Below, one piece after another: positions 1 to 61,928 of a stretch of DNA of 64,000 nt. The position numbers were made by a program, and so were the translations under genes. Numbering within the stretch: the stretch's first letter is position 1; the number at the start of each line of letters is the position of its first letter. The notes beneath the pieces were generated by a model. It saw nothing but the letters and a program-made list of their open reading frames with translations, was not told where the DNA came from and searched no databases. The stretch is from a virus, in the IMG/VR virus record IMGVR_UViG_3300018877_000002, one strand, 5' to 3'.

Positions 1-1
1 T

Positions 2-205
2 GAACATGAGAATGATGTTCATGATGATCTTTATGCGACTTTGTTTTTAGCAACATCTATTAAAATTGCTAACATCAATCGTTTACGACAAATGATTGAT
101 GAAGCCATAGACAATGGTGACGAAAAAGCATTCATGAAATTATCTGCCGAACTTCAACAGCTTGAAGAGCAGGATGTTAACATGTGTGATTCTAACTATT
201 CATAA
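2..205 (+). CDS. 3-prime fragment of an ORF entering from upstream, IDEAL-motif-like C-terminus
   Basis: Frame 2 is open from the window edge to TAA at 203-205. Translation ends RLRQMIDEAIDNGDEKAFMKLSAELQQLEEQ. A terminator follows. Confidence 0.4.
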   Translation, partial: EHENDVHDDLYATLFLATSIKIANINRLRQMIDEAIDNGDEKAFMKLSAELQQLEEQDVNMCDSNYS

Positions 206-222
206 TATTCACTCGGGCAAAA

Positions 223-253
223 ATGGTAGGAGATAAGTCCTACCATTTTTTTA
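223..253 (+). terminator. rho-independent terminator
   Basis: Stem ATGGTAGGA / TCCTACCAT with a 6-nt loop, followed by a T7 run. Confidence 0.75.
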
Positions 254-265
254 TCTTCTGATGTA

Positions 266-294
266 TTGACAAATCCTCTAATTATTGCTAGACT
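266..294 (+). promoter_or_regulatory. sigma-A-type promoter of the first operon
   Basis: TTGACA, a 17-nt spacer AATCCTCTAATTATTGC, then TAGACT, 20 nt upstream of the MazG-like start. Confidence 0.55.
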
Positions 295-314
295 GTAGTT
301 AGAGGTGATACATT

Positions 315-878
315 ATGACGGTAAAGTCTTCCGTTACACTTGGGCAGATTCAGGAATATGTAAAAGAGGTTGAAGTAACAAAAAAATGGGATAAGCAAAT
401 TGGCTCTTTTGGTGGGCTTCTTCTGGTGGAAGAACTGACCGAAATTCAAGAGGCAATGGAGCTTCACTCCAATCTGAGCCAACGCATTGGTCGCGTAGCA
501 AAAGCAATTCGCAATCAGGAAGTCGGTCGCTTTGGTCATGACGAGATCAATAATAGCGATCAACAAAAACTTGAAGCTATTGGCGATGAATGTGCTGATG
601 TGCTTTTCGCTATTGTTAAGGTAGCTAACTACTATGGTCTTGACCTTGCAACTCATTATCATAGATTGCAATACAAAATTAAGGATAGATTTCCTGAATT
701 AAAAGAAAAAGATATGAAAGTCATTTTACTACAATGTGGAAATGTCAATGTTGTGAATTGTGTTTCTTGCAACAAAACTCACGTTGGCATTCCTTCTTTG
801 ATCGAAAACCGCGCTGATAAGGTTGGGTGGTTTGTATGTCCCGTCACTGGAAATAAAATTCTCATACCAAAGGATTGA
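315..878 (+). CDS. mazG: MazG-like nucleoside triphosphate pyrophosphohydrolase with Cys-rich C-terminal tail
   Basis: VEELTEIQEAM and IGDECADVLFAIVKVANYYGLDL match the paired EExxE / ExxD helices of all-alpha MazG NTP-PPases. The C-terminal 50 aa carry 4 Cys. Confidence 0.7.
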   Translation: MTVKSSVTLGQIQEYVKEVEVTKKWDKQIGSFGGLLLVEELTEIQEAMELHSNLSQRIGRVAKAIRNQEVGRFGHDEINNSDQQKLEAIGDECADVLFAIVKVANYYGLDLATHYHRLQYKIKDRFPELKEKDMKVILLQCGNVNVVNCVSCNKTHVGIPSLIENRADKVGWFVCPVTGNKILIPKD

Positions 879-939
879 TAAAACAGGAGTTCCAGTACGC
901 AACGCAGTTCTCGAAGCTAACGATAAACTTTAAAGGGAG

Positions 940-2454
940 ATGTCAAAAATGAAAACAATCTTTGAAATGATGCGTAAGCGCCAAAATAAAATTCTTCGTG
1001 TTGATGCCTATGGGTTTTCTCATAACATGTTGAAGATTGACACGTCTTTCGAGGTGTCGCACATGTACAATCGTCGCAGACCACAAATCCTCTTCTTATT
1101 TTCGCATTATGTCGCTGAGGCGTTTGGTACGCCTATCACGATGGAAGATGTTGATGAGGCGCACGAAATCGCAAAAGAAATGGGATTGGTCTTTCCGCGT
1201 CATATTTTTGAACGTGTTGTAAATGAATTCAAAGGGTATTTTCCTATCAAGGTAGAGGCGTTGCCTGATGGTTTCTATTGCCCTGTAGGTACACCCTTCT
1301 GTCAAATCTCTAATGTAGCTAAGGATTTTGATGATCTAAATGCATTCATTGCATGTCTTGGACACGCAGGTTTTGGTGAACTTGTCTCTTGGGATGAGGC
1401 ATATCTGATGAAAGCTTACTTTCCTGCCGCCGCCGCTACTCACGCATTCGAGATGAGGGAATATCTCGAACAACAATGCAAAGAACATGGGTACGATTGG
1501 GAGCAATTTAAGTGGCGTTTCCATTCTTTTGGCTATCGCGGACATGCTTCTGAGCAAAACGCGGCACTCGCTGGATTGGCTTGGAATATGTCTCTGTTCG
1601 GAACTGATGACATCCACACAAAACAATATTATCGTAAAGCTCCTGTTGGCTCTGTGGCGGCTTCTGCACACAAGGTTGTCCAGCAGTTCGATGATGAACT
1701 ACAGTCCTTCCTGTATGGTGTAGATGCTGTTGCAGAGGCGTTCCATCAGCGCGGTGAAGGTTCTCCCATCTTCCCTTTCCCTATCGACACATACAACGCG
1801 AATAATGTGATTCAAAATTACATTCCTGTTGTTGCGAAGTATGCGGCTGAAAAAGATGTTCGAATTACGCCTCGCCCTGATAGCGGCAATGTCATTCAAC
1901 AAGCAATCGACATCTATCATGTTGCGCAAGAGCATGGTCTGACTAATGTGAGTGTAATCATTGGCGAAGGAATGTCCTTTGAACAAGTCAAAAAGTATGA
2001 TGCTATCTTGCTCGAAAACAACGTTCCTTTGAACTTTGTGCTGTATGGCATTGGGGCAGGATTTTACACTCATCTTACTCGCGACTATTTGGGATGGGCG
2101 ATGAAAACTTCATTCTCTAACAAAGATAGCCGTATGAAGTTTTCTGAAGTTCCTATTAAACAATCAATTCCAGGAATTGTCAAGCTGTTTATTGACGAAG
2201 AGATGAACATGGTCGTTGATTATAGCAACGATGGAAAGTATGCTGGCGCTATCAATGCTGATAATGGATTGTATAATATCCTCTATCATTTTGATGGCTC
2301 TACAGACAAGCCCTTTGTCAAGGTCTTCACCATCGAAGAAAATCATATGCAGATCGAATCTCAGCGTGAAGCACGTGTAGCTGACACCATTGTCATTGCT
2401 CCTGCAATCAAGGAAGAGATTAAGCGCATTCGCGCATTACATGGGCTGTCCTAA
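940..2454 (+). CDS. nadV: nicotinamide phosphoribosyltransferase (NAMPT/NadV)
   Basis: 504 aa. HSFGYRGHAS, RPDSGNV and IIGEGMS are type II phosphoribosyltransferase/NAMPT motifs. The length is typical of NadV. Confidence 0.85.
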   Translation: MSKMKTIFEMMRKRQNKILRVDAYGFSHNMLKIDTSFEVSHMYNRRRPQILFLFSHYVAEAFGTPITMEDVDEAHEIAKEMGLVFPRHIFERVVNEFKGYFPIKVEALPDGFYCPVGTPFCQISNVAKDFDDLNAFIACLGHAGFGELVSWDEAYLMKAYFPAAAATHAFEMREYLEQQCKEHGYDWEQFKWRFHSFGYRGHASEQNAALAGLAWNMSLFGTDDIHTKQYYRKAPVGSVAASAHKVVQQFDDELQSFLYGVDAVAEAFHQRGEGSPIFPFPIDTYNANNVIQNYIPVVAKYAAEKDVRITPRPDSGNVIQQAIDIYHVAQEHGLTNVSVIIGEGMSFEQVKKYDAILLENNVPLNFVLYGIGAGFYTHLTRDYLGWAMKTSFSNKDSRMKFSEVPIKQSIPGIVKLFIDEEMNMVVDYSNDGKYAGAINADNGLYNILYHFDGSTDKPFVKVFTIEENHMQIESQREARVADTIVIAPAIKEEIKRIRALHGLS

Positions 2455-2556
2455 TATACCCATTTATGTTTAAACTCACTCCTGAACTTTTAAAAAGGCT
2501 CAGGAGTGGGGCAAATGCAAAGATCACCTATAGGATTTTGCCAAGGAGGGAAGGTA

Positions 2557-3180
2557 ATGGAAAAACAATTTAAAGCTGGCTTCATGGTTGGACGCTTCCA
2601 GCATATCCATAAAGGGCATCAGGAAATCATTGAGCGCGGCATCAATTCGTGCGAAAAGTTTGTGGTATTTGTAGGCTCCTCTCAGGAGAGTGAAACACGA
2701 CAAAACCCTTACAGTGCCGCTGAGCGCATTAAGCTTATCAAGAAGATTTATGGCGACCTTGTTGAAGTTATCCCATTGCCTGACATCACGACCCCTGATG
2801 ACATCAGCGAAGCATGGGGTAAATACGTAATGGAACAGGCGACAATGGCTCTTGGTGAACATCCTGACTACATGGTCACTGGTAGCGGTGACAGTCAAAG
2901 CCTATGGTTTACTGAAGATCAGTTGACCTTCCAAAAAGGCAGAGATATGGCAAGAATGTATTTTGACATCGTACCGCGAAGCAACACGCCCATCAGCGCA
3001 ACTGAAATGCGCCATTATCTGCTGACAGATAACTTCCAATCGTGGAAGCAGTTTGCAGACATTCGTATCCATTGCAAATTTGAGTGGCTTCGCCTGTTGC
3101 TTCTTATAGTCGAGTATCACAATTTGAGAAGAAAGCTTATCGTCAAAGACGAAAGTGAACTTGATGATGCTAATTTCTAA
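2557..3180 (+). CDS. nicotinamide-nucleotide adenylyltransferase (NMNAT, NadM/NadR-type)
   Basis: GRFQHIHKGH matches the (H/T)xGH nucleotidyltransferase motif and ISATEMR matches the ISxTxxR motif. Start moved to the ATG at 2557, behind AAGGAGGG. No Nudix box seen. Confidence 0.8.
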   Translation: MEKQFKAGFMVGRFQHIHKGHQEIIERGINSCEKFVVFVGSSQESETRQNPYSAAERIKLIKKIYGDLVEVIPLPDITTPDDISEAWGKYVMEQATMALGEHPDYMVTGSGDSQSLWFTEDQLTFQKGRDMARMYFDIVPRSNTPISATEMRHYLLTDNFQSWKQFADIRIHCKFEWLRLLLLIVEYHNLRRKLIVKDESELDDANF

Positions 3181-3204
3181 CTCATAGGAGGGTTATATAC
3201 AACA

Positions 3205-4122
3205 ATGGAACAAAAAGCATATATGGACATCGTTCGCCTTGGACACAAAACCACGCAAGGGATTCTGAACGATGGCGACCACATCGTGGTTCAAGAAAAG
3301 CTGGATGGCGCAAATGCATCCTTTTGTCTGAACCCTGCGAATGGCGACCTTGCGGTATTCTCTCGCCGCACAAAACTTGATGAGAGCAACACTCTTGGAG
3401 GCTTTTATGGATGGGTAATGGACAATATCGCTGGCAAAGTCCTTCGCCCTAACACGATCTACTTTGGCGAATGGCTGAATCCCCACAAGGTCAAATACCC
3501 TGAGAAGACATTCTACCTGTTTGACCTGTACGATGTAAGCACTCATCGTTACCTTCCCTTCGAAGAAGTCAGGAATGAGGCTCAGAGACTGCATCTGAAT
3601 TTGATTCCTGTTTTCTACGAGGGAGTATACCAAGGTTATGCTCATCTGGAGCAGTTCGTCGGCAAGACACTGATTGGCGGCAAGCTTGGCGAAGTGGAGC
3701 AGGGTGAAGGAATCGTTGTCAAAAATGTAACTTTCATCAACCAATTTGGCAGACAGATGTTTGTCAAAATGGTCACTGAGGCTTTTGCTGAGGTGCAAAA
3801 ACAAAAGTTGCCAAAAGACCCTAATAAACCAAAGAGCAAAGAACGTTTATTCGTAGACACTTACGTTACCAAGGCACGTGTTGAGAAGTTCCTGCACAAA
3901 CTTGTTGATGAGCAGGTATTGGATGCTCAATGGGGTATTGAAGATATGGGTGTCGTTCTCAAAGAGCTAAACCATCGTATTTATGATGATCTTATAAAAG
4001 AAGAAGCCGACTATCTGCCGAGTGTATACGACACCAGAGAGCTTCGCAAAAGCCTTAGCACAGTTATGCCAAATTTTGTCAAAGAAATTATCAAGGAGAG
4101 ACAAAAAGATGAAAATTGTTGA
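3205..4122 (+). CDS. ATP-dependent RNA ligase family protein
   Basis: Covalent nucleotidyltransferase motifs: I VQEKLDGAN, III YFGEW, IIIa FYLFDLY, IV EGIVVKN, V FVKMV. The KLDGxN form is typical of RNA ligases. Confidence 0.7.
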   Translation: MEQKAYMDIVRLGHKTTQGILNDGDHIVVQEKLDGANASFCLNPANGDLAVFSRRTKLDESNTLGGFYGWVMDNIAGKVLRPNTIYFGEWLNPHKVKYPEKTFYLFDLYDVSTHRYLPFEEVRNEAQRLHLNLIPVFYEGVYQGYAHLEQFVGKTLIGGKLGEVEQGEGIVVKNVTFINQFGRQMFVKMVTEAFAEVQKQKLPKDPNKPKSKERLFVDTYVTKARVEKFLHKLVDEQVLDAQWGIEDMGVVLKELNHRIYDDLIKEEADYLPSVYDTRELRKSLSTVMPNFVKEIIKERQKDENC

Positions 4123-4381
4123 TAAACGCGTAAACAATAAAAGGGCGAATTTCGGCTCCTTTGTTGTCCTAGACGATGAATCCTATCTATTCGTTACTAA
4201 CTACTCTTCCTTTGAAAAAGCTTATCCTGTCAAACTGTTCTCTATAGATTCTGGATTATTCGTAGAGGGTGTCGGTTCCCTTGATGAGCTTTACATTGGA
4301 AGGTGTATTGGCGACCACTTAATAAAAGATATTATAACATCGAGCGAAGCAACTCTTGTTATTGGGGAGGAGGGCGTTTAG
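4109..4381 (+). CDS. hypothetical protein
   Basis: ATG at 4109 behind AAGGAGAG. Overlaps the ligase stop. No recognisable motif. Confidence 0.5.
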   Translation: MKIVDKRVNNKRANFGSFVVLDDESYLFVTNYSSFEKAYPVKLFSIDSGLFVEGVGSLDELYIGRCIGDHLIKDIITSSEATLVIGEEGV

Positions 4382-4435
4382 CCCTCTCTTTCTCCAAAAG
4401 GTAAATGTATAAACTAAGGAGGTTGGAGAACATAA

Positions 4436-4864
4436 ATGAAAGAAATAATACAAGATTTGTTCTCTGTTGATGATTCTTATTTTTTAGCTCATTGTATTTC
4501 AGCAGATGCCCGCATGGGTGCGGGGATTGCAGTTGAATTTGTTAAACGTTTCCCTCAAATTACACGTCTACGTAATGATTGGCAGACCTATAATGCTGTG
4601 GGCACATGTCGAAAAATAGGAAGAGTATTTAATCTTATCACTAAATATAGAGCTTGGGATAAACCAACCTATGGAACTCTTACTCGCTCCTTGGAGGATA
4701 TGAAACTGAAAGCGATTGAGAAGGGTGTTGCGAAAATTGCGATGCCACGAATTGGCTGTGGTCTAGATGGTTTACAATGGCACATAGTGAGAAATGTTAT
4801 TGAAGATGTTTTTGACGACACTGAAATTGAAATACTTATTTGCAAACCAGAACAAGGGAGATGA
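4436..4864 (+). CDS. macro domain protein (ADP-ribose binding/hydrolase fold)
   Basis: FLAHCISADARMGAGIAVEF and IAMPRIGCGLDGLQW match Poa1p-like macro domains. Confidence 0.8.
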   Translation: MKEIIQDLFSVDDSYFLAHCISADARMGAGIAVEFVKRFPQITRLRNDWQTYNAVGTCRKIGRVFNLITKYRAWDKPTYGTLTRSLEDMKLKAIEKGVAKIAMPRIGCGLDGLQWHIVRNVIEDVFDDTEIEILICKPEQGR

Positions 4865-4868
4865 TACA

Positions 4869-5585
4869 ATGAGTGAATTTGAAAGAAATATCATTATCAG
4901 CGATCAGATTACACCTCAGTTGGCAGGTGATATTATTAAACGTATTCAAGATATCAATATCTTTGATTCTCAAGAAGAGGATGAAGTAGAAGCGAAACGT
5001 TCTATCTTGGCTGAACAGATTAAATCACGTACAACAGGCTCTGATGAAGAAGTGTATTCACTTGTGGATTTAATACTCCCTCCTTATCAACGCGAACCGA
5101 TAATTATTACCGTTAATTCCATTGGAGGCAATGCATACGATGGCTTTGCAATTATTGGTGCTATGGAGATGAGTGAGACTCCCATTTACACTGTTTGCAC
5201 TGGTTCCGCTATGAGTATGGCTCTATTGCTCTTTGTAGCTGGCGATGTGCGCTTTGCTCATAGAATGGCTACGTTCATGTATCACGACTCTAGCTGGGGC
5301 GGTGGAGGCACTAACACGCAAATGCAACGTCATATAAAGGAAATTGAGCGTTTAAATAAAGTATATGATAATTACTTGCTAGAGAATACTTCACTCCCAC
5401 AAGAGTTGCTTGACGATGTTCGCGGCAAGGTTGACAATCTATTTTTTGATGCTTATCAAGCGCAAGAGTATGGTGTTGCTGATGTTGTACTTCCAGATGA
5501 TAACACAGTAAATATCAAAGTAATTGCAGAGCAATTACTTGCAGAAGCCGAGGGGAGCGAAAAGAATGAAAAAAATGCTCTCTAG
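4869..5585 (+). CDS. clpP: ClpP-family serine protease
   Basis: ITVNSIGGNAYDGFAIIGAM and TGSAMSMALLLFVAGD (the ClpP Ser motif), then MYHDSSWG. Start at the ATG at 4869, behind AAGGGAG. Confidence 0.8.
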   Translation: MSEFERNIIISDQITPQLAGDIIKRIQDINIFDSQEEDEVEAKRSILAEQIKSRTTGSDEEVYSLVDLILPPYQREPIIITVNSIGGNAYDGFAIIGAMEMSETPIYTVCTGSAMSMALLLFVAGDVRFAHRMATFMYHDSSWGGGGTNTQMQRHIKEIERLNKVYDNYLLENTSLPQELLDDVRGKVDNLFFDAYQAQEYGVADVVLPDDNTVNIKVIAEQLLAEAEGSEKNEKNAL

Positions 5586-5669
5586 GTATGGACTCACTTA
5601 TCCTTTACCTCTTCTATTCAAAAAGTAACTTTTCGTGGAGAGAAACATCTGCTATATGCTAATTTGAGC

Positions 5670-5698
5670 TTGACAAAATAGAAGATTGATGTTAAAAT
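5670..5698 (+). promoter_or_regulatory. sigma-A-type promoter
   Basis: TTGACA, 17 nt, TAAAAT. Confidence 0.6.
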
Positions 5699-5764
5699 TA
5701 TTGATGTAGACCTCAATTGGAGGATGCGTCAAATGATGATGTTGCTTATACAATTTGTATCTCT

Positions 5765-5798
5765 TATAACCCCTTTCGCTTTAGCGCTAGGGGTTATA
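5765..5798 (+). promoter_or_regulatory. leader hairpin upstream of the RNase H gene
   Basis: 10-bp perfect stem TATAACCCCT / AGGGGTTATA enclosing a CGC-TTTA-GCG mini-hairpin. No T run follows. Confidence 0.5.
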
Positions 5799-5826
5799 GG
5801 GTACATATTGAAAATAGGGAGGGAAC

Positions 5827-6630
5827 ATGGAGAGAAAAAACGTCAAAGTTCTTGATAAATGGGTTGCCATTCGTGATTCAGTCAAAAAAGGAAATAACTT
5901 TTTTACTATTGGCAAAGACCTTCGAAAGCCCACTGCAAAAGGAAAAGATGAACCAGAAATCATTGCTGTTGTTAATCCGAGTGGGGATAACCCAATCCAT
6001 TTTGGCTTAGATGATCTTCTTTTTGGCCTTTCCCAGCTTTTTGGGAAAGAGGTTTTGGCAAAAATGCTTGATGTTCCCACTAATCCTGATATTATTGAAA
6101 GTAAAAAAGGAGATGGGAAAAAGCAAAGGGAAAATCCAGTATGGATTCCAGAGGTTAACCCTGATGTTATAACCATCTATTCTGATGGAGCAGTAAGCGG
6201 AAACGGCACACCTGATAGCTATGGTGGATGGGGCGCAGTAATGCTTTATAAAGGCAAGGAGAAAGAGGCGTATGGCTCTGTAAATGAACCTACCACTAAT
6301 CAACGAACTGAGCTTTTAGCCGCTATAATTCCTCTCGAAGAAATTAAAACAACTTCTATCCCAATCGAGGTATATACTGATAGTGCTTATCTCTACCATT
6401 GCTTTCAAAATGATTGGAGAGAAGTGTGGGAGAAGAATGGCTGGATAACTTCAGATAAGAAACCAGTAGCCAATCGTGATTTGTGGGAGCGACTGTTTGC
6501 CGCTATTGACAGACAGCGCAGAGTAAAGTTCTTTAAAGTCAAAGGCCACGCAGGAATCCCACTCAATGAGAGAGCAGATAAATTGGCTCTCAAAGGAAAA
6601 GAAGAGGCAAAACAAAAAAGGGGGTTATAA
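5827..6630 (+). CDS. rnhA: ribonuclease HI with an N-terminal extension of about 120 aa
   Basis: YSDGA, TNQRTELLA, YTDSAY and NERADKLA correspond to the RNase H DEDD motif positions. Confidence 0.85.
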   Translation: MERKNVKVLDKWVAIRDSVKKGNNFFTIGKDLRKPTAKGKDEPEIIAVVNPSGDNPIHFGLDDLLFGLSQLFGKEVLAKMLDVPTNPDIIESKKGDGKKQRENPVWIPEVNPDVITIYSDGAVSGNGTPDSYGGWGAVMLYKGKEKEAYGSVNEPTTNQRTELLAAIIPLEEIKTTSIPIEVYTDSAYLYHCFQNDWREVWEKNGWITSDKKPVANRDLWERLFAAIDRQRRVKFFKVKGHAGIPLNERADKLALKGKEEAKQKRGL

Positions 6631-6631
6631 T

Positions 6632-6892
6632 ATGTCTAAAAAAACTTGGACGACTATTGAGGTGAACGATGGTCAAGTCGAAGTATCCCCCAATCATGAT
6701 GAATCTTGGGAGGTATCAAGCAAGTATGTAGATTCTATCTGCTTGTATATCAACAACAAATTCTCAGAAACTTCATCAGGCATTGGGTTATCTGTAGAAG
6801 AGGCGTGTCAATTAGTAAAAGCTTTAAATTTTGCAATTGCCGCTGTTGAGCAATGGAAAACCTTCAATAGAAAGGATAGATTCGATGTTTAA
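6632..6892 (+). CDS. hypothetical protein
   Basis: ATG at 6632 directly after the rnhA stop. Open frame. Confidence 0.5.
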   Translation: MSKKTWTTIEVNDGQVEVSPNHDESWEVSSKYVDSICLYINNKFSETSSGIGLSVEEACQLVKALNFAIAAVEQWKTFNRKDRFDV

Positions 6893-7094
6893 GAAAATTG
6901 CTGAGAATATTCGAACAGCTATTAATTGGTTCATTATTGCTGTGGCTATTGTAATGCTTGTTGTCTTTGTGGCTAAGATGTTTACAGTGGCAGTTGCATT
7001 GATTGCTGTCATTATTACGGTAGTTTTTGCTGTATATTACACTGGCTACTTTGTGGGCTTCTACAAAGGTAAAAAGAAAGGGGTTAAAAAATAA
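6885..7094 (+). CDS. small membrane protein
   Basis: Internal ATG at 6885. Two hydrophobic segments (WFIIAVAIVMLVVFVA, VALIAVIITVVFAVYY). Confidence 0.5.
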   Translation: MFKKIAENIRTAINWFIIAVAIVMLVVFVAKMFTVAVALIAVIITVVFAVYYTGYFVGFYKGKKKGVKK

Positions 7095-7964: not shown

Positions 7965-10900
7965 GTGATTATTCTGTCTAAGATTGATGAAAAACGTTAC
8001 GAGAATCAAATAAGCATAATGAAGCTCGTTAAGAGCAATCGTGAATGGCTATCTAAGACTAATTACGATATGCAACAATTTGATTCTAAGTTTAGCGAGT
8101 TAACCTCCATCTTCCGCGAGGTAATAACTGCTGAGGACGAAGAGATAGAGGAAACTATTTCTAAAAAATTAAAGGAAATGGCTAAGGATTACCTTGCTTC
8201 TATCCATCCCTACAGAAGATTCTCCAGTCTTCACAATCATACCAACCGAAGTTTACTGGATGCTATTGGTACGCCAGAGCAGATTGTGCAACAAGCTTAT
8301 GAGTTAGGGTTTAATGCTGTCGCTCTTACTGAGCATGGCAACATGTTCTCTATGATTGATGGTTACAAGAAGGCGAAGGAATTGGGTATTAAGTACATAT
8401 TCGGCTGTGAAATTTACGAATGTGACGATATGTACGATAAACGCCCTGAAGTGCTTTATGATAGATACCACTTGATTTTGCTTGCGAAGAACAAAACTGG
8501 TGTAGAAAATCTATTTAAAATCGTTACAGCAGGACAAACTGACGGCTTCTATGGTAAGCCGCGTGTTGATAGAAGGTTCCTTGCAGAACATTCTGAGGGG
8601 CTTGTCTGTTTGTCCGCTTGTTTAGCAAGTAGAATCTCACGCTTGCTAGTTAACGACAGATGCCCTTGTTGCCACGATAAGCCAGAAGAAGGCGGCGATT
8701 GTGTAAGCTTTGAACCTGATTGGGAGCAAGCTAAAAAGGAAGTTGAGATTTACAAGAGTATTTTTGGTGATGATTTTTATATTGAACTTCAAAATCATAG
8801 AAGCGATGCACAGCATCGTTCCAATAAAAGAAATCTGAAGCTGGCTCTTGAAACTAATACGGAATTTACCATTACATTTGACTCCCATATGTTGAACGAG
8901 AGCCAAATGAAGATGCATTCCACATTCGTTAAAATGGGGCAAGATAGAGAAGCGGGCGAAACTTATCTTGACTGTTGGCAGACAGACATTGATGGTATTC
9001 ACGCTATCATGGATGCACAAATTGGGCGTGAATACGTGCTACAAGCAATCGCCACCTCTGATAAAATTTCTGCCGAAGTCAACTTTGAGTACGAATTGCA
9101 TCAAGACCTTATGCCACACGTCAAAATTCCTTCCACTTTTAAGGACGACAGGCAATACTTGAAACACCTCATCAATGAGGGTTGCAAGAAGCGTGGTATT
9201 GACAAGCTTCCCGCTGACATTCGCAAGGTATGCTATGATCGTCTAAGATATGAATTTGAAGTTCTAGACTATTTGGACTACTGTTCATATTTCATCATGC
9301 TCAATCAGCTTGTGACAAAACTCAGAGAGCGTGAGGTTCCGCTTGGATATTCACGTGGCTCTGGCGGTAACTCTTACACTCTTTATGTGATTGGCGTTAC
9401 TGAGGTTGATTCGATCAAGTGGGATTTGGACTTCTCACGCTTCGGCAATAAAGGGCGTAAAGGTTCACCTGCTGACTATGATATGGACGTATCACAGCTT
9501 CGTAGAGGGGAGGCTATTGAGGTTGCGGCTGAATTGTTTGGCGAAGAAAACATTTGTCAGCTTGCAACCTTTAACTCTCTGACTCCTAAAGTTGCATTTA
9601 AGGATTTAGCAAAAGTATTCCATGCAGAGGGAGTCTATAACATTCCGTACAAAAAAGCAGAGGCTATTTCTAAGCTGATACCTGACGACCCTAGTAAAAA
9701 AATCCCTATTGCAGAAGCGCTAGAAATCAGCCCTCAGCTTGCGGCATACAAAGAGCAGTATCCTTTGATATTCGAGTACATTGAACAACTTCAATACGCC
9801 CCTAAGAGTGTTGGTTGTCATGCGGCGGCTGTTATCATTGCACCAAGACCTGTCGTAGAGTTCGCTCCATTGATGTACAACGAAAAAGGTAATATCATGA
9901 TGCAACTAGAGATGGGCAATGCAATGGATGACATTGGCTTGGTTAAAATGGACTTCCTTGGACTCGTCACTGTCGATGTTGTAGACTATACGCTAAAATT
10001 TGCTGGTCTAACATGGAAGGATATTGACCTCGCAACAATGGATTTGGATGACAAGGCTGTCTTCTCTGAGATTTATGGCAAAGGCAGAACGCTTGGTATT
10101 TTCCAAATGGAATCTAAAGTTGCACAAGAGATGTTCCGCAATATGCAACCTGATAACATTAACGACATTTTTGCTGTTAATGCCTTGAATCGTCCAGCTA
10201 TTCTTAATGTTGGTATGGATAAAATTTACATTCAAAATAAGCATGACAAAAATAAGATAAGGTATGCTCATCCTGATCTGGAGGAGCCATTCGCTCCAAC
10301 CTATGGTGTTATGTTATATCAAGAACAGGCACTAAAGGTATTCTCTATAGCTGGTTTTCCAGAGGATGAAACTGACCAAGCAAGACGTGCTATAGGCAAG
10401 AAAAAGCCGAAAGTCATGGCAAAGTTGTATGCTCAATTCAAAAGTGGTTTGGCAAAGCGTAATTGGACTGAGGAGGCTGTCAAAGAAATCTGGGATTTGA
10501 TTAAAGCTCAGGCTGACTATTCCTTTAACAAAGGTCACTCCACTGCCTATGGCTTGCTGTCATACGTCACAGCGTGGCTAAAATACTACTATCCAGTAGA
10601 GTTTATGTGCGCACTGTTGATATCTGAAATTGGCAACTATGAACAAATCACCAAGTATATCGACGAATGTAAAAAAATGGAGATTCCAGTACTTCCTCCT
10701 GATATCAATAAGTCTGAACGACATTTTTCTATCGTTGATGGCAAAATTCTGTTTGGACTTGAAGCGATTAAAGGTGTTGGAGCTAAGGCGACTGATCTGA
10801 TTCTCTTTGTCCGTGAGTCAATTGGAAGATTCGATAACCTTGAGCATTTCTATCACATTATGGAGGGAATCAATGATAACATTAATTTTCTCCAAAGGTT

Positions 10901-11645
10901 TAATTCGCGCAATGCTCCACTTGAAGCTATTAGTGCTGAGCTAGAAGAAGGTATACAGAAGATCAAGAAAATTGATTCTGGTACGATGATAGCTCTCATT
11001 AAGAGTGGTGCATTTGGCTCTAATATTGATGAAATTCTTATGGAATTTGCCCATCTTCAATTTCCAAAAAGACAATATAAGCCTGTGGTGGGACTTCCTA
11101 CTAAGAAAGTTTGCTTTGAAACTGGTCTTGCTACTTCTGAAGAAGAATGGAAGAAACATAAAGATGTAATTCTGGCACGTTACAACGCCAGAAGGGAGGA
11201 GGCGTTCATAGCAGAGCAAAATGAGCGCTTAGCCAAGCATCTTGAAGAGTTTGAAAGCAAATACATGGCAACGCCCGAAATGTATGAGTTTCAAACTTTG
11301 TCGATTTTCCTTAGTGGAAGTCCATTTGACCATGTGATGGAACGCTTTAAGGATTTTGACTTAGTTGACGATGGAGAGCCAATTACGATTGCTGGTACGA
11401 TTGCCACTCTTCAACGCAAGAAGAGTAAAAAGAAAGACGGCAAGCAATATGCTAGGCTTTCAATCCTGACTGTCAAAAATGGTGTCATCGAAGGCATTTG
11501 TTTCAATAAGCAGTATGTGATGTATCAGGATTTATTAGTCAAAGGCAATAACGTTGTTATTCTTGCCGAAAAAGATGGTGATGGCTTTAAAGTTAATAAG
11601 ATGAAGTCTTATGATGTCTGGAAGGCCGAAAAAGGCATCAAGTAA
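7965..11645 (+). CDS. dnaE: DNA polymerase III alpha subunit (DnaE-type, PHP domain)
   Basis: PHP motif LHNHTNRSLLDA...ALTEHGNMF. Palm motifs GYSRGSGGNSYTLYVIGVTEVD and PADYDMDVS. 1226 aa. Confidence 0.9.
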   Translation: MIILSKIDEKRYENQISIMKLVKSNREWLSKTNYDMQQFDSKFSELTSIFREVITAEDEEIEETISKKLKEMAKDYLASIHPYRRFSSLHNHTNRSLLDAIGTPEQIVQQAYELGFNAVALTEHGNMFSMIDGYKKAKELGIKYIFGCEIYECDDMYDKRPEVLYDRYHLILLAKNKTGVENLFKIVTAGQTDGFYGKPRVDRRFLAEHSEGLVCLSACLASRISRLLVNDRCPCCHDKPEEGGDCVSFEPDWEQAKKEVEIYKSIFGDDFYIELQNHRSDAQHRSNKRNLKLALETNTEFTITFDSHMLNESQMKMHSTFVKMGQDREAGETYLDCWQTDIDGIHAIMDAQIGREYVLQAIATSDKISAEVNFEYELHQDLMPHVKIPSTFKDDRQYLKHLINEGCKKRGIDKLPADIRKVCYDRLRYEFEVLDYLDYCSYFIMLNQLVTKLREREVPLGYSRGSGGNSYTLYVIGVTEVDSIKWDLDFSRFGNKGRKGSPADYDMDVSQLRRGEAIEVAAELFGEENICQLATFNSLTPKVAFKDLAKVFHAEGVYNIPYKKAEAISKLIPDDPSKKIPIAEALEISPQLAAYKEQYPLIFEYIEQLQYAPKSVGCHAAAVIIAPRPVVEFAPLMYNEKGNIMMQLEMGNAMDDIGLVKMDFLGLVTVDVVDYTLKFAGLTWKDIDLATMDLDDKAVFSEIYGKGRTLGIFQMESKVAQEMFRNMQPDNINDIFAVNALNRPAILNVGMDKIYIQNKHDKNKIRYAHPDLEEPFAPTYGVMLYQEQALKVFSIAGFPEDETDQARRAIGKKKPKVMAKLYAQFKSGLAKRNWTEEAVKEIWDLIKAQADYSFNKGHSTAYGLLSYVTAWLKYYYPVEFMCALLISEIGNYEQITKYIDECKKMEIPVLPPDINKSERHFSIVDGKILFGLEAIKGVGAKATDLILFVRESIGRFDNLEHFYHIMEGINDNINFLQRFNSRNAPLEAISAELEEGIQKIKKIDSGTMIALIKSGAFGSNIDEILMEFAHLQFPKRQYKPVVGLPTKKVCFETGLATSEEEWKKHKDVILARYNARREEAFIAEQNERLAKHLEEFESKYMATPEMYEFQTLSIFLSGSPFDHVMERFKDFDLVDDGEPITIAGTIATLQRKKSKKKDGKQYARLSILTVKNGVIEGICFNKQYVMYQDLLVKGNNVVILAEKDGDGFKVNKMKSYDVWKAEKGIK

Positions 11646-12273: not shown

Positions 12274-12623
12274 CTAATGAGCAACTTGAAAATTTGAAAA
12301 GGCTTGAAGCAAGCCTACCCAATGAACTTGTAGCGCAAACTTACTATAGCCAAGGTATGCAATGTTATTGTGTAATAGGCTATGCGCTTCATTATCAATG
12401 CAATGTTGACCTCGATAGATTGATGACAATGAATGATTGGATTGATACGTACAACAATTATTCAGGAATGCTCCAAGAGGTCTACGGCCTATCAATCGAA
12501 GAGTTGCGTGATCTCCAAGACATAAACGACCATTCTTACGAGAATGGCAAACATGAACGCGCTATAGCTGTTAAAGCATATCTTGCACGACTCATTAAAG
12601 AAAAGGAGGCTGAAATCCAATGA
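12270..12623 (+). CDS. hypothetical protein
   Basis: Open frame translationally coupled to its neighbours. Confidence 0.5.
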   Translation: MTNEQLENLKRLEASLPNELVAQTYYSQGMQCYCVIGYALHYQCNVDLDRLMTMNDWIDTYNNYSGMLQEVYGLSIEELRDLQDINDHSYENGKHERAIAVKAYLARLIKEKEAEIQ

Positions 12624-12802
12624 CACAACCAAATATGACGATTGTTGAATTCGCCAAAAATGTCCTTGGCTTCGATCTCACCGAAGAACAAGAAGCAAAA
12701 CTTGTTACTTTTGCAAAGGGTGGCACTGTTACCTTTTCAAAAGATGAAGATGGGGCAATGCTACTAGAGATCACTGCAAAATATCACAACTACAAAGGAT
12801 AA
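12620..12802 (+). CDS. hypothetical protein
   Basis: Open frame with an ATGA overlap to the previous gene. Confidence 0.5.
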   Translation: MTQPNMTIVEFAKNVLGFDLTEEQEAKLVTFAKGGTVTFSKDEDGAMLLEITAKYHNYKG

Positions 12803-12814
12803 GTGGTGGTATAA

Positions 12815-13084
12815 ATGTGGGATAATATCTTAAATGTACTTGGAAGGTGGAGTAAAAAGACTCCACCTATCTTTCTTCCTCTGTGGCTTTTCATAGGTAT
12901 CGTTACTGCTTTTGCTATTGTATTACCTATGTGGCTGATAGGGTTTTGGTCTTGCATCACTTGCAAAAGAATATTTTGGATGAAGTATAAAAGAAAACGA
13001 ATAGTCTATGATAGAAGTGATTGGGGTTTGGAAAATCCAAAATCTCAATGTGTCACTTGCCACTCTAAATATTCAAACAAATAA
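12815..13084 (+). CDS. membrane protein with CxxC pairs
   Basis: TM segment IFLPLWLFIGIVTAFAIVLPMWLIGFW, then CITC and CVTC. Confidence 0.5.
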   Translation: MWDNILNVLGRWSKKTPPIFLPLWLFIGIVTAFAIVLPMWLIGFWSCITCKRIFWMKYKRKRIVYDRSDWGLENPKSQCVTCHSKYSNK

Positions 13085-13102
13085 TCGGAAAGAGGGATGC
13101 GT

Positions 13103-13261
13103 ATGCTTCGATTTATCATTGGCATATTTTTAATGGTGCTATCCTTTGCATTGATTGAAGACATGGTAAGTGCAGGATGGGATGTCAAATTGTCAGCACT
13201 TATCTTTCTGCTTATTAACATGGTTGGCTGGAAAGTTGCTAAATCTGGCATAAGATTGTGA
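13103..13261 (+). CDS. 52-aa small membrane protein (not in the ORF track)
   Basis: ATG behind AAAGAGGGA. Hydrophobic MLRFIIGIFLMVLSFALI... Ends at the TGA at 13259-13261. Confidence 0.4.
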   Translation: MLRFIIGIFLMVLSFALIEDMVSAGWDVKLSALIFLLINMVGWKVAKSGIRL

Positions 13262-13287
13262 CAGAGATAAGTGCACTCTGTCACAAT
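13255..13287 (+). promoter_or_regulatory. 12-bp perfect hairpin
   Basis: ATTGTGACAGAG / CTCTGTCACAAT with a 9-nt loop. No T run. Overlaps the stop of the small ORF. Confidence 0.5.
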
Positions 13288-13310
13288 TCTGTCCAACAGG
13301 AGGAAGGAAA

Positions 13311-13757
13311 ATGGACATAAACAACATTGTTTACTTTGGCGAAAAAGCTGTAGAAGTGGATTCTTTACCAGATAACTCTGTGACTAAAGAACAATTCCAA
13401 TCAGCACGTATGAACAGCTATGCCTTTGAAAAGATTCTGCCGAAACTCAATAATGAAGCATTAAAATATGTGGTTGAGCATCACCTTGTAAATTGTAGAC
13501 GTGAACCTAGGTCTACTTATGACTGGAGTATGAAAACGAATCTGATCCCTGAGTTGTTGAGGAGAATGTCAACACCTAAGAAAGTGTGGATTGTTACGCA
13601 TGGAAACTACGAAGAACAAACTACTGAATTCATTTTGGGTAATAAAATAGAAGCAGATAAATTATATGAGATTCTAAGTAGTCAAAGTCACTATTATAAT
13701 ACTCCAGAAGAGCATGACCTATACAGTAAAGCTTCTGATGTTTTGGGCGAAATGTAA
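13311..13757 (+). CDS. hypothetical protein
   Basis: ATG behind AGGAGGAAGG. Confidence 0.5.
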   Translation: MDINNIVYFGEKAVEVDSLPDNSVTKEQFQSARMNSYAFEKILPKLNNEALKYVVEHHLVNCRREPRSTYDWSMKTNLIPELLRRMSTPKKVWIVTHGNYEEQTTEFILGNKIEADKLYEILSSQSHYYNTPEEHDLYSKASDVLGEM

Positions 13758-14456: not shown

Positions 14457-14912
14457 ATGGACATCAAGAGTGGTTGCGGATACCCCTTATCTGCGCTGTC
14501 TAACTTTGCTCCACATCCGTTTGAGATTGATGGAGTTGAGTGTTACAGCATGGAAGGGTTCTTGCAAAGTTTGAAGTTTAAAAACATCGACATGCAAGAA
14601 CACGTCTGCAAACTTGTTGGTATTAAAGCCAAGATGAAGGGTAAGAACAAAACTTGGTGGAAGGAGCAGAAACTTTATTGGAGAGGTCAGGAAATTGACA
14701 GACACAGCCAAGAGTATCAGGATTTACTAAACAGAGCATACTTGGCTCTTGCGAAAAACATTGGTTTCCGCAAAGCTCTATTGGCAACTGGCAATGGTGT
14801 GTTGAAACATTCAATAGGGAAAAAAGATGCGCACCAAACAATCTTGACTCAGAAAGAGTTTTGTTCACGTCTTATGTGGATTCGCGATCTTTTGCAAAGG
14901 GGTGAGATATAA
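14457..14912 (+). CDS. NADAR (YbiA/DUF1768) family protein
   Basis: LSALSNFAPHPFEIDGVECYSMEGFLQSLKF matches the NADAR signature LSNF.P.PF..DG..Y.S.E...Q..KF. Confidence 0.75.
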   Translation: MDIKSGCGYPLSALSNFAPHPFEIDGVECYSMEGFLQSLKFKNIDMQEHVCKLVGIKAKMKGKNKTWWKEQKLYWRGQEIDRHSQEYQDLLNRAYLALAKNIGFRKALLATGNGVLKHSIGKKDAHQTILTQKEFCSRLMWIRDLLQRGEI

Positions 14913-59792: not shown

Positions 59793-60827
59793 ATGACAGC
59801 TATTGGAAGTAGGGTTGTAAAGCTTCATTCTGGTGTGCGCGATGTGGGAAGCATGATTGAGGTTTTCCTTAATGATAAGCGCATCAACTCAGAACGGACG
59901 GCGGTTTCTTATGAGGGGGATATTCGCCAGTTCTTCCGCTATATGTGCCGCAAAGAACTTCATGAACTCACTGTAGATGACATCAAAACAGGTGAAGGCG
60001 GCATTTTGCACAGCGACATTCTTCAATACAAAAACGAGCTTGTAGAGTGCTATGCCGCAAGCACTGTCAATCACAAAATGTCTGTAGTGAGGCAAGTATT
60101 TGGACATTTGGCAAAAGACTTCCCTACGCTAATCCATCTTCCCATTTTTGATGTAGAGACAGTCAAAGGCGAAAGTAAGCCTATTGGTTGGCTCACATGG
60201 GATGAAGTCGAAAAAATGATTGAACTTGCCAAGTCACTTCCAAGCGGTGAACAAAAGAGTCTTGCCATCGAATTGGCGGCTAGAACTGGCATTCGCTTGG
60301 AAGCATTGCACAAGCTCACTATTGACAACTTCACTCAACATGAGGGGTATGTCTTGATAACAGTTTTAGACAAAGGGAAGAAGAAAGATGAAAAACCCAT
60401 CCCTTACAACGTATTTGAAAAGGTTGTCCAACTCACAAAAAGGTTTGACGGCAAGTTGTTTAAAATTTGCAAACGGACACTTCAAAGAGCAGTTACTGAT
60501 GAGCTTGTCCCGCTAATGGGGATCGAAGAAGAGCGTGAAATCAGCTTCCACTCCATTAAGAAGATGGGTGTTATGTGGGTTCTGGAAGAAACTGGCGATT
60601 TGCAAAAGGCGGCTATTCATGGCAATCACTCAAACATCCAAACAACTTGGAAGTATTATGTAGAAAAGCACAAAAATCACATTACATTTGCCGCGCTACA
60701 AATGGGACGCAAGGTAGACTTGTCGCCGTTGGAACACCTGTCCAGAGAGGAACTGCTTGCACTCATACAAAACGCAAGCAGAGGAACACAAATCGAATTG
60801 CTGAGTAAAGTGGGGGTATTAGAATGA
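59793..60827 (+). CDS. tyrosine-recombinase-fold protein with a degenerate HxxR motif
   Basis: ARTGIRLEAL (Arg I) and HGNHSNIQTTWKYY (His/Tyr) are present, but the HxxR box reads FHSIKKMG (R replaced by K). N-terminal SAM-like core-binding region. Confidence 0.7.
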   Translation: MTAIGSRVVKLHSGVRDVGSMIEVFLNDKRINSERTAVSYEGDIRQFFRYMCRKELHELTVDDIKTGEGGILHSDILQYKNELVECYAASTVNHKMSVVRQVFGHLAKDFPTLIHLPIFDVETVKGESKPIGWLTWDEVEKMIELAKSLPSGEQKSLAIELAARTGIRLEALHKLTIDNFTQHEGYVLITVLDKGKKKDEKPIPYNVFEKVVQLTKRFDGKLFKICKRTLQRAVTDELVPLMGIEEEREISFHSIKKMGVMWVLEETGDLQKAAIHGNHSNIQTTWKYYVEKHKNHITFAALQMGRKVDLSPLEHLSREELLALIQNASRGTQIELLSKVGVLE

Positions 60828-61051
60828 GAAATCATCTGTATACAATAGGGTACAGTTATCAATTAAGTAGCGATGATCCAAACCTTATCCGAAGTGGATT
60901 TGATTTTGTTCCATGTTATGATCTAAAAGAGTTTAACCATTATTTTTGGGTTATCATTGAAGAAGGGAGTGAAATTATTTATATTGACATGCTCATTGAC
61001 AACAAAGTTGTTGTAATTTATGATAAAGAAAAGGCTAGCCTAATAGGTTAG
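60824..61051 (+). CDS. hypothetical protein
   Basis: ATGA-coupled to the upstream gene. Confidence 0.45.
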   Translation: MRNHLYTIGYSYQLSSDDPNLIRSGFDFVPCYDLKEFNHYFWVIIEEGSEIIYIDMLIDNKVVVIYDKEKASLIG

Positions 61052-61060
61052 CCTTTAATT
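61031..61060. terminator. bidirectional terminator at convergent gene ends
   Basis: AAGGCTAGCC / GGTTAGCCTT stem flanked by A4 and T-rich tracts. Overlaps both stop codons. Confidence 0.6.
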
Positions 61061-61928
61061 TTTCTAGCAACCTTATATAATCTTTTGACAAAACCACCTC
61101 AACTTGAAGCTTAAATTCATCTCCCTTTTTCTTTACAAAGTCTAATCGTCTCTCATCTTCTGTAACAAAGATAATAAGTGGAAAACCTGCTTCTTTTAAT
61201 CGTTTGAACCATCCTTCTTTCATCCAATGTCCTGATTGCCTAAATTTTCTGTATTTATTTAATTTCTCCTCAATCATGGGAAAATTCTTAGAATTTCCTC
61301 TATCCTCTGTTCCTGTGTCATACTCCACAAATGAAATCAATGGCTTTTTCCCTATGCCCATAATCATAAAAACATCAGGTGAAAGTTTAATATTTTCTTT
61401 ATTGTACATAAATTTTCTTGCAACCTCTATATCCCATCTGACTAACTTCCATTCATTCTTAATGCAAAATCTTATAGTATCCACTTCTAGTTGATTGACA
61501 CCATTTACATGAAAGAATTGAATGGGCACTTCTCGTTTATGAACATGGATATTTCCACCTTTAACTGTCTTGTGTTGTTTAATACGCCTATTAAACCTCA
61601 CTCCAAGAATGATAGCCCCAGCTCTGTCTAATGCTACAATACATGGTTTATTTCCTTCCTTATATCCTGTTTGCTCATGCACTTTGTCAATGCACATTTT
61701 TTCGAAAAGCTTACGAATGGAGCGATTAAGCACAATCGCTCCATTCGGGATGTCTCTGTAAGCGGGATGGATAACCTCTAAATGGTCACGCCGTACATAC
61801 TTCCTCTTGTGAATGATTCTTAGCAATTCCATCTCTCTATCTGTAATGTTATTACAATTGAGCTTTACCCAATCAGATGTAATCCTCGCTTGTTCCACGC
61901 GCTCGTACCAACCCTTTTTCTTGGTCAT
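61035..61928 (-). CDS. replication-relaxation (Replic_Relax)-like protein
   Basis: N-terminal winged-helix-like ITDREMELLRIIHKRKYVRRDHLEVIH, as in the plasmid Replic_Relax family. Coupled to the upstream ATPase. Confidence 0.4.
   Translation of the reverse strand: MTKKKGWYERVEQARITSDWVKLNCNNITDREMELLRIIHKRKYVRRDHLEVIHPAYRDIPNGAIVLNRSIRKLFEKMCIDKVHEQTGYKEGNKPCIVALDRAGAIILGVRFNRRIKQHKTVKGGNIHVHKREVPIQFFHVNGVNQLEVDTIRFCIKNEWKLVRWDIEVARKFMYNKENIKLSPDVFMIMGIGKKPLISFVEYDTGTEDRGNSKNFPMIEEKLNKYRKFRQSGHWMKEGWFKRLKEAGFPLIIFVTEDERRLDFVKKKGDEFKLQVEVVLSKDYIRLLEKLKANLLG

Follow-up and report, generated by a model that had tools for sequence, protein, structure and literature searches.

Near the 5′ end of the window, by which we mean the whole 64,000-nucleotide (nt) stretch of the virus record IMGVR_UViG_3300018877_000002 (IMG/VR) analysed here, lie two neighbouring genes whose products resemble a nicotinamide phosphoribosyltransferase (NAMPT) and a nicotinamide mononucleotide adenylyltransferase (NMNAT). 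Open reading frames (ORFs) were read from the 64-kb window and gene calls were taken from identical public contigs. The two genes share one strand, are separated by 102 nt and are each preceded by a ribosome-binding site:

940/949-2454, + strand: NAMPT, 504 or 501 amino acids (aa) depending on the start codon; family profile matches
2557-3180, + strand: NMNAT, 207 aa; family profiles, motifs and fold

A prediction made earlier from the letters of this region had read the pair as a two-step NAD+ salvage route akin to the phage NAD+ reconstitution pathway NARP2, lacking the Nudix half of its second enzyme, and had proposed that a MazG-type pyrophosphatase encoded immediately upstream might stand in for that half. 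The pair itself is borne out by ORFs on the + strand, profile matches, conserved residues and predicted fold, and we consider it likely, with a probability of about three in four, that these genes constitute a phage-borne NAD+ salvage cassette of the NadV–NadM type that is functionally a NARP2. The 501-aa NAMPT would convert nicotinamide and host phosphoribosyl pyrophosphate (PRPP) to nicotinamide mononucleotide (NMN), from which the 207-aa NMNAT, drawing on host ATP, would form NAD+. The NAD+ pool would thereby be held up during infection, including when NADase-based host defences release nicotinamide.

What supports the assignment of the first gene? Its ORF opens with an ATG at 940 that directly adjoins a GGGAG ribosome-binding site, and this site lies 9 nt before the ATG at 949, which is the likely start, yielding a protein of 501 aa in agreement with public gene calls. 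The protein is identical to database entry P0011 and matches PHROG 448 (‘nicotinamide phosphoribosyl transferase’, 1.9e-47), NCBIfam PRK09198 (2e-46, 158.7 bits), the Pfam families NAPRTase (5e-12) and NAMPT_N (9e-5), and the structures of human and other NAMPTs (~1e-16). Active-site residues were mapped by HMMER alignment to the NAMPT chain of PDB entry 6tac together with a MAFFT alignment, using human residue numbering. In the phage protein, D22 and Y24 correspond to human D16 and Y18, F197 and R200 to F193 and R196, D223 to D219 (the nicotinamide-specificity residue), H244 to H247 (the autophosphorylated histidine), R312 and D314 to R311 and D313, and R381 to R392; human D354 is replaced by Glu. 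The mapped positions are invariant or nearly so across 29 members of the clade to which this NAMPT belongs, with R200, D223, H244, R312, D314 and R381 being fully invariant.

The second gene starts at ATG 2557, 7 nt past an AAGGAGG ribosome-binding site, and encodes the same protein as database entry P0001. It matches Pfam CTP_transf_like (6e-12), the NMNAT of M. jannaschii (PDB 1f9a, 2e-12) and the NCBIfam archaeal NMNAT family TIGR01527 (8.6e-17). The motifs GRFQxxHxGH and ISATxxR are invariant in the NMNAT family, and the window protein carries HKGH and ISATEMR; a further invariant pair, D and W, aligns with its counterparts in the KDI...W segment of the archaeal enzyme. An AlphaFold2 model computed from a 10-sequence alignment (pLDDT 84, pTM 0.82) retrieves 2qjo, the NMNAT domain of NadM from Synechocystis, as top Foldseek match; this domain and the archaeal NMNATs, likewise among the best matches, reach TM scores of 0.72–0.78 on the target, and phosphopantetheine adenylyltransferases (PPATs) rank behind them. 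Judged by these comparisons, the 207-aa protein is a stand-alone NMNAT of the archaeal or NadM N-domain type. Its subfamily comprises 289 cluster representatives at E <= 1e-10, mostly of 170–230 aa, and only 5 of the best 150 exceed 330 aa; among isolated phages, ME3 of Acinetobacter and Phosso of Sinorhizobium already have an annotated short NMNAT. In this subfamily, the stand-alone form is the norm.

That this NMNAT comes without a Nudix domain, as had been claimed, was confirmed by a Pfam profile search, which reports CTP_transf_like alone in the ORF, by Nudix-box regular expressions and by a hidden Markov model (HMM) of the clade's Nudix proteins. The ~45 residues that follow ISATEMR are modelled as one helix. 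Strict, relaxed and minimal versions of the regular expression gave no Nudix box when run over all six frames of the window plus 7.4 kb upstream, while the same expressions detected the box in control loci. Within the window, the HMM, for which 14 Nudix proteins encoded at related loci were aligned, gave no match above 4.8 bits, compared to 150–228 bits on the relatives, and it also detected the NrtR regulator of Paenibacillus; the 7.9 kb past the window end were likewise free of Nudix matches. Taken together, these negatives and those for Prs/Adps-like genes reported below cover the locus plus flanks, or ~79 kb of the ~158-kb genome.

Comparison with relatives puts this architecture into context. 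In a sample of 24 lineages of the NAMPT clade, a short NMNAT gene lies directly 3′ of NAMPT in 19, the product measuring 178–213 aa by gene calls and 189–260 aa as unrefined IMG/VR ORFs. In 15 of these 19, the next gene is a separate Nudix gene of 176–204 aa that has a canonical box and in some cases overlaps the stop codon of NMNAT, and none of the clade lineages examined has an NMNAT–Nudix fusion. Such triplets (for example L011, from Brevibacillus laterosporus, L012 and L014-L022) are those of uncultured large Bacillota phages and phage-like elements, whose NAMPTs fall in the same clade at 40–49% identity; the short NMNAT follows directly as in the window, but where they carry the Nudix gene the window has an RNA ligase. 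An adjacent Nudix gene is missing from four lineages, namely the window phage, a phage-like contig (L010), a 244-kb contig (L126/L034) and the chromosome of Paenibacillus methanolicus (L007). Since NMNAT and Nudix are always separate in the clade, the ancestral state was split rather than a fusion later truncated. The ‘missing half’ of the original prediction is thus correct insofar as no Nudix gene occurs in the sequence examined, but it is not the remnant of a lost fusion. A truncated or frameshifted NadM fusion was rejected for the window gene too: the genes are separate throughout the clade, and the RNA ligase has its own start, 24 nt past the NMNAT stop codon. By comparison, the Nudix HMM does recognise the fused ‘cytidyltransferase’ (364 aa) of Xanthomonas phage XaC1, as one would expect of a protein of the classic NadM type. 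In KVP40 and NadM enzymes, the Nudix domain hydrolyses ADP-ribose (ADPR) or NAD+ and stands outside the synthetic route (PMC9503650), so that its absence does not break the pathway; NARP2 was, moreover, defined as Nampt plus Nmnat, without reference to a Nudix domain (Osterman 2024). In this NAMPT lineage, Nudix appears as a separate, dispensable accessory gene that is absent from the locus of the window phage.

At the P. methanolicus locus, in a plainly chromosomal context, a gene for an NrtR-type regulator (Nudix plus the winged-helix domain WHD_NrtR) lies directly upstream of NAMPT and NMNAT, which show the same order and the same stand-alone architecture as in the window (46% identity for NAMPT; 31%, E 4e-36, for NMNAT) and are likewise unaccompanied by a gene for an ADPR-pyrophosphatase Nudix enzyme. 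In contrast to this cellular operon, the phage copy is devoid of NrtR and resides in an early operon with a MazG-like ORF, RNA ligase, Macro and ClpP genes. The adjacency of NAMPT and NMNAT in 19 of 24 lineages, together with this NrtR-linked pair, points to functional coupling of the two enzymes. Two further loci of the clade are organised differently. In L018 (11423-14168), PnuC-like and NadR-like ORFs, as read from the sequences, plus Nudix take the place of NMNAT–Nudix, which would put NARP2-type and NARP3-type components in one locus; in the Nudix-less L010 (8113-9934), the NAMPT–NMNAT pair is followed by two Amidoligase_2 genes.

How does the cassette relate to characterised phage enzymes? 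The best match of the NAMPT among 50,697 deposited phage genomes is only 27% identical. It aligns with NadV of Vibrio phage ValKK3 (NARP2) over residues 10-391 at 23.6% identity and with Nampt of Xanthomonas phage XaC1 (NARP2-like) over residues 15-417 at 26.8%, but with the Namats of the NARP1 phages G1 (Staphylococcus) and alia (Escherichia) over residues 99-393 and 99-362 only, at ~22% each; these four references are 31.5–40% identical among themselves. In a neighbour-joining tree, which included these four reference sequences only and carries no support values, the references form one group and the window NAMPT plus its relatives another. The protein hence appears to belong to a deep clade that shares only 22–27% identity with KVP40-type Nampt and with NARP1 Namat alike. 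Relatives at 40–50% identity are found on the chromosomes of Paenibacillus, Brevibacillus and Bacillus methanolicus, in a metagenome-assembled genome of Nitrososphaerota and on many large metagenomic contigs; the clade counts roughly 170 members, and 23 of its loci are present in IMG/VR. By sequence, the cassette shares its lineage with the chromosomal NrtR-linked nadV–nadM operons of Paenibacillus and not with KVP40.

Compared to NARP2 of KVP40, which consists of NadV and the NMNAT/Nudix protein NatV (Lee 2017, Osterman 2024), the window pair is predicted to perform the same two reactions with the same two enzyme superfamilies, both phage-encoded and with no Adps associated. The NMNAT shares the N-terminal archaeal-type domain of NadM and NatV but has no C-terminal Nudix; it is a stand-alone protein of 207 aa rather than a fusion of ~350 aa, and no Nudix gene accompanies it at the locus. 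The NAMPT appears to lie outside the Nampt/Namat radiation, at 23.6% identity to NadV of ValKK3, a phage of KVP40's genus. The window genes are adjacent, in contrast to ValKK3, where NadV has no annotated NMNAT within 4 kb, and the hosts differ (Bacillales versus Vibrio). The predicted two-step, NARP2-like route is largely supported as far as its composition, Nampt plus Nmnat, is concerned, but the proteins are not close relatives of KVP40 NadV and NatV.

The surroundings of the pair contain the following features:

219-250, + strand: terminator-like hairpin; consensus scan
266-294, + strand: promoter-like site TTGACA-17-TAGACT; consensus scan
315-878, + strand: MazG-like ORF, 187 aa; Pfam MazG, sub-threshold
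2475-2510, + strand: 11-bp hairpin without U-tract in the NAMPT–NMNAT spacer; folding versus shuffles
3205-4122, + strand: RNA ligase (Rnl2-like); Pfam RNA_ligase 1e-24, PHROG 548 3e-64
4109-4381, + strand: orf90, an ORF of 90 aa; ORF list
4436-4864, + strand: Macro-domain protein, 142 aa, Poa1p-like ‘phosphatase’ or DarG-like; PHROG, NCBIfam, PADLOC
4869-5585, + strand: ClpP; gene list
5827-6630, + strand: RNase H; gene list
7965-11645, + strand: Pol III alpha; gene list

The NAD+ pair is embedded in an early nucleotide-metabolism and replication module that includes ribonucleotide reductase, dUTPase, ThyA, DHFR and Pol III alpha. The terminator-like hairpin at 219-250 has 13 bp plus a T-run, and the promoter-like site directly follows it, 5′ of the MazG-like ORF. 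Among the promoter-like sites of the region, the best (11/12 matches and a TG extension) lies at 5670-5698 (+) and precedes RNase H; counts of such sites in the consensus scan are no higher than in shuffled sequence. This layout suggests a single unit starting at 219-294 and comprising the MazG-like ORF, NAMPT, NMNAT, RNA ligase, orf90, Macro and ClpP. The gene for a ClpP-family protease (4869-5585) belongs to the early non-structural module; it is apparently transcribed together with the NAD+ pair, RNA ligase and Macro and not with head genes. The spacer between NAMPT and NMNAT (2455-2560) folds at −30.2 kcal/mol (z = −2.6 versus shuffles); its hairpin has no Rfam match and could serve in the processing or stability of the mRNA or act as a partial terminator. 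An Rfam scan of 1-7000 for an NAD+ riboswitch returned one spurious miRNA match only.

The MazG-like ORF, putatively of the all-alpha NTP pyrophosphohydrolase type, is probably the first gene of this transcription unit and marks the junction with a dUTPase–ThyA–DHFR nucleotide module. MazG enzymes act on (d)NTPs, and nucleotide-metabolism modules of phages often carry MazG-like genes. The ORF indeed lies immediately upstream of NAMPT, as predicted, but its assignment falls below threshold: it reaches 20.9 bits (E 4e-4) against Pfam MazG (PF03819), where the gathering score is 22, matches NCBIfam MazG weakly and finds its best MazG-like proteins in the PDB at E 0.05–0.5. Motifs of the EExxE and ExxD type can be read from the sequence (EELTEIQE and DECAD). 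A search of 5.8 billion proteins retrieved only the ORF itself, tblastn against phages yielded nothing significant and there was no PHROG match; a PADLOC match to Cas13d was discarded as spurious. The single-sequence AlphaFold2 model reached a pLDDT of 38 and was not used for fold searches. The C-terminal tail (residues ~140-187, CGNVNVVNCVSCNKTH...FVCPVTG) is rich in cysteines and forms small beta-hairpins in this low-confidence model, and it may be a zinc ribbon.

Of the neighbours, the Macro gene and the RNA ligase are a better lead than MazG. The Macro protein matches PHROG 335 (3e-32), NCBIfam DarG (1.7e-13) and PADLOC DarG (1e-15), and its phage homologues, annotated as Poa1p-like, belong to a family found in 1336 records and widespread in phages without NAMPT. 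Its gene lies three genes downstream of NMNAT in the window phage, and a homologue sits directly upstream of NAMPT in the unrelated 244-kb contig (L126:5537-5977; L034:9516-9956), whose NAMPT is the nearest neighbour of the window protein in the neighbour-joining tree; none of the 15 loci with an adjacent Nudix gene has a member of this Macro family. On L126, an RtcB RNA ligase is encoded 5 kb downstream of NAMPT (12436-13425). No KptA/Tpt1 or 2H phosphoesterase was detected in the ORFs scanned, and a Pfam scan of ten further early ORFs was negative for KptA, 2H, Nudix and Prs. The RNA-ligase neighbours may link NAD+ supply to RNA repair, and Macro is a possible functional partner of the NAD+ pair that would handle ADP-ribose derivatives. 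A functional link of this kind is conceivable because Adpp, a Poa1p-like Macro protein, has been proven to assist NARP1 against aRES (Osterman 2024).

We infer enzyme activities, substrate choice and a role in counter-defence from homology, catalytic-residue conservation, fold and synteny, and several observations weigh against a NARP2 assignment made in this way. The NAMPT clade appears to branch outside the two phage groups that have been characterised, Nampt and Namat, and the preference for PRPP over ADP-ribose pyrophosphate (ADPR-PP) is therefore a prediction, as are the activities throughout the clade. With 158.7 bits, the NAMPT stays far under the equivalog cutoff of PRK09198 (405), and the NMNAT, with 61.2 bits, under that of TIGR01527 (181.2), so that the latter is better described as a subfamily related to, yet distinct from, the archaeal NMNATs. 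The catalytic residues checked are conserved in Namats as well and do not separate them from Nampts, and with ~79 kb of 158 kb examined, an Adps or Nudix gene could be encoded elsewhere. On such grounds, the first protein might instead be a Namat served by a distant Adps, a notion to which the equal distance of the clade from Nampt and Namat and the ADPR-PP activity that KVP40 Nampt shows to some extent (Osterman 2024) lend substance; or the 207-aa protein might be another nucleotidyltransferase (specific for nicotinate mononucleotide, or PPAT-like), given that PPATs are the next-best structural matches. Both variants strike us as improbable. NARP1 (Adps plus Namat) shares with the window the TIM-barrel superfamily and active-site residues, but the window locus has no Prs-like Adps and does have an NMNAT, which NARP1 does not use and whose gene lies directly behind NAMPT in 19 of the 24 clade lineages. 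In the NARP1 phages, which serve as positive examples, Adps is encoded directly upstream of Namat; no Prs/Adps-like ORF was found in the window, its flanks or a first set of related loci, even at E 10, or in further related loci at E 0.01, the search reaching 6–10 kb from NAMPT in the clade loci scanned. This result, the alignment to Nampts over the full length (residues 10-417) but to Namats from residue 99 only, and the third glycine of the GxGxG loop, which the phage protein keeps as Nampts do and which is F/Y in the two Namats examined, favour Nampt over Namat, and the chromosomal version of the pair is NrtR-linked. As to the second enzyme, only NMNATs are found among its best matches, whether by sequence or by structure, and the NMN-site residues D and W are conserved. 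Substrate aside, the counter-defence role is drawn by analogy: KVP40 NARP2 overcomes Thoeris as well as aRES, against which NARP1 fails, but it raises NAD+ even without any defence (Osterman 2024). The pair could hence be mainly a metabolic booster, providing NAD+ for RNA repair, ADP-ribose chemistry or redox demand, with counter-defence secondary. This is a tenable minority view, which leaves the chemistry unchanged and alters the selective purpose alone. Beyond the KVP40 precedent, it can draw on the location within the nucleotide-metabolism and replication module, the apparent co-transcription with RNA ligase and the Poa1p-like Macro, the Macro and RtcB genes beside the closest NAMPT relative on L126, and the description of NAD+-dependent RNA repair in phages (PMC9503650). 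KptA/Tpt1 and 2H phosphoesterase were, however, not found among the ORFs scanned, and a metabolic benefit is compatible with counter-defence.

Which neighbour, if any, takes over from the absent Nudix enzyme? That the MazG-like protein does so by hydrolysing ADP-ribose or NAD(H) we regard as highly improbable. Its adjacency to NAMPT, the apparently shared transcription unit and its putative metal-binding motifs are all that commend it, and set against these are the orphan status of the ORF, its sub-threshold assignment, the (d)NTP substrates by which we know MazG enzymes, and the finding that no MazG-like ORF flanks NAMPT in any relative, including the Nudix-less L010, L126 and L007. The proposal of a non-orthologous replacement is accordingly unsupported. 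Macro as the ADP-ribose-handling accessory of the cassette where a Nudix gene is absent is a less remote idea, if still an unlikely one: it could, for example, dephosphorylate ADPR-1''-phosphate arising from RES-type NADases or remove ADP-ribose adducts. The family neighbours NAMPT only in two Nudix-less lineages (window phage and L126/L034) and in 0 of the 15 with adjacent Nudix, and the Adpp precedent and the Poa1p-like annotation of its phage homologues agree with such a function. Yet two lineages are a narrow basis, L034 has a Nudix gene ~7.6 kb upstream, Macro and Nudix reactions differ, the family is common in phages without NAMPT, and a DarG-like, anti-DarT role fits equally well; nor does NARP2, which in KVP40 cancels aRES on its own, need ADPR. 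Bolder and slightly less likely again is the thought that a Nudix-less NadV–NadM cassette joins with Macro, as a Poa1p-like phosphatase, and with RNA ligase in a distinct module tying NAD+ resynthesis to the clearance of ADP-ribose-phosphates, an arrangement seen independently in the 158-kb window phage and in the 244-kb jumbo-phage contig. If true, the by-products cleared would come from NAD+-consuming RNA repair or RES-type NADases, and the enzymes would be those of an uncharacterised NAMPT clade that may prefer either PRPP or ADPR-PP.

Read as a NadV–NadM type salvage cassette, the gene pair would extend NARP2-type NAD+ reconstitution to SPbeta/E3-like phages of Bacillales, by means of an enzyme lineage that has no close relatives in ~50,000 deposited phage genomes (best 27%) and is shared with chromosomal salvage operons of the hosts. 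It would further imply that the Nudix activity, fused in the textbook NadM and NatV, is separable and dispensable in this NAMPT lineage, and that surveys of NARP2 seeded with KVP40 proteins alone may under-count such cassettes. The known chemistry is unchanged and the impact incremental; the recurrent Macro and RNA-ligase neighbours provide a lead that might connect NAD+ supply to ADP-ribose or RNA-repair chemistry.

The phage itself appears to be SPbeta/Geobacillus-virus-E3-like with a Bacillales host. In its ~158-kb genome, TerL shares 70% identity with the Geobacillus virus E3 protein, there are genes of the YonK, YonG and YonF-like kinds, and a ReoY/IDEAL protein encoded upstream points to a Bacillales host. 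The phage is also related to Alicyclobacillus phage KKP_3916, with SPbeta-like phages more distant, and megablast of 300-6700 against phage records returned zero matches. A tyrosine integrase (59793-60827, +) and a Replic_Relax protein (61035-61928, −) are encoded in the window and a tubulin-family (TubZ/PhuZ-like) gene lies just past its end (L044:4349-5476), which suggests that the phage may be temperate or a phage-plasmid. At 14457-14912 (+), the window encodes a strong homologue (Pfam Phage_30_3, 3e-56) of the T4 protein gp30.3, whose function is unknown. Finally, a variant contig of the same phage carries a gene for a 220-aa PRA-PH protein, an all-alpha NTP pyrophosphatase (L005:59-721), in the position that other contigs of the phage devote to a 218-aa dUTPase/dCTP deaminase (DCD) gene (L001:2162-2818), which suggests that modules have been exchanged in this nucleotide-metabolism region.

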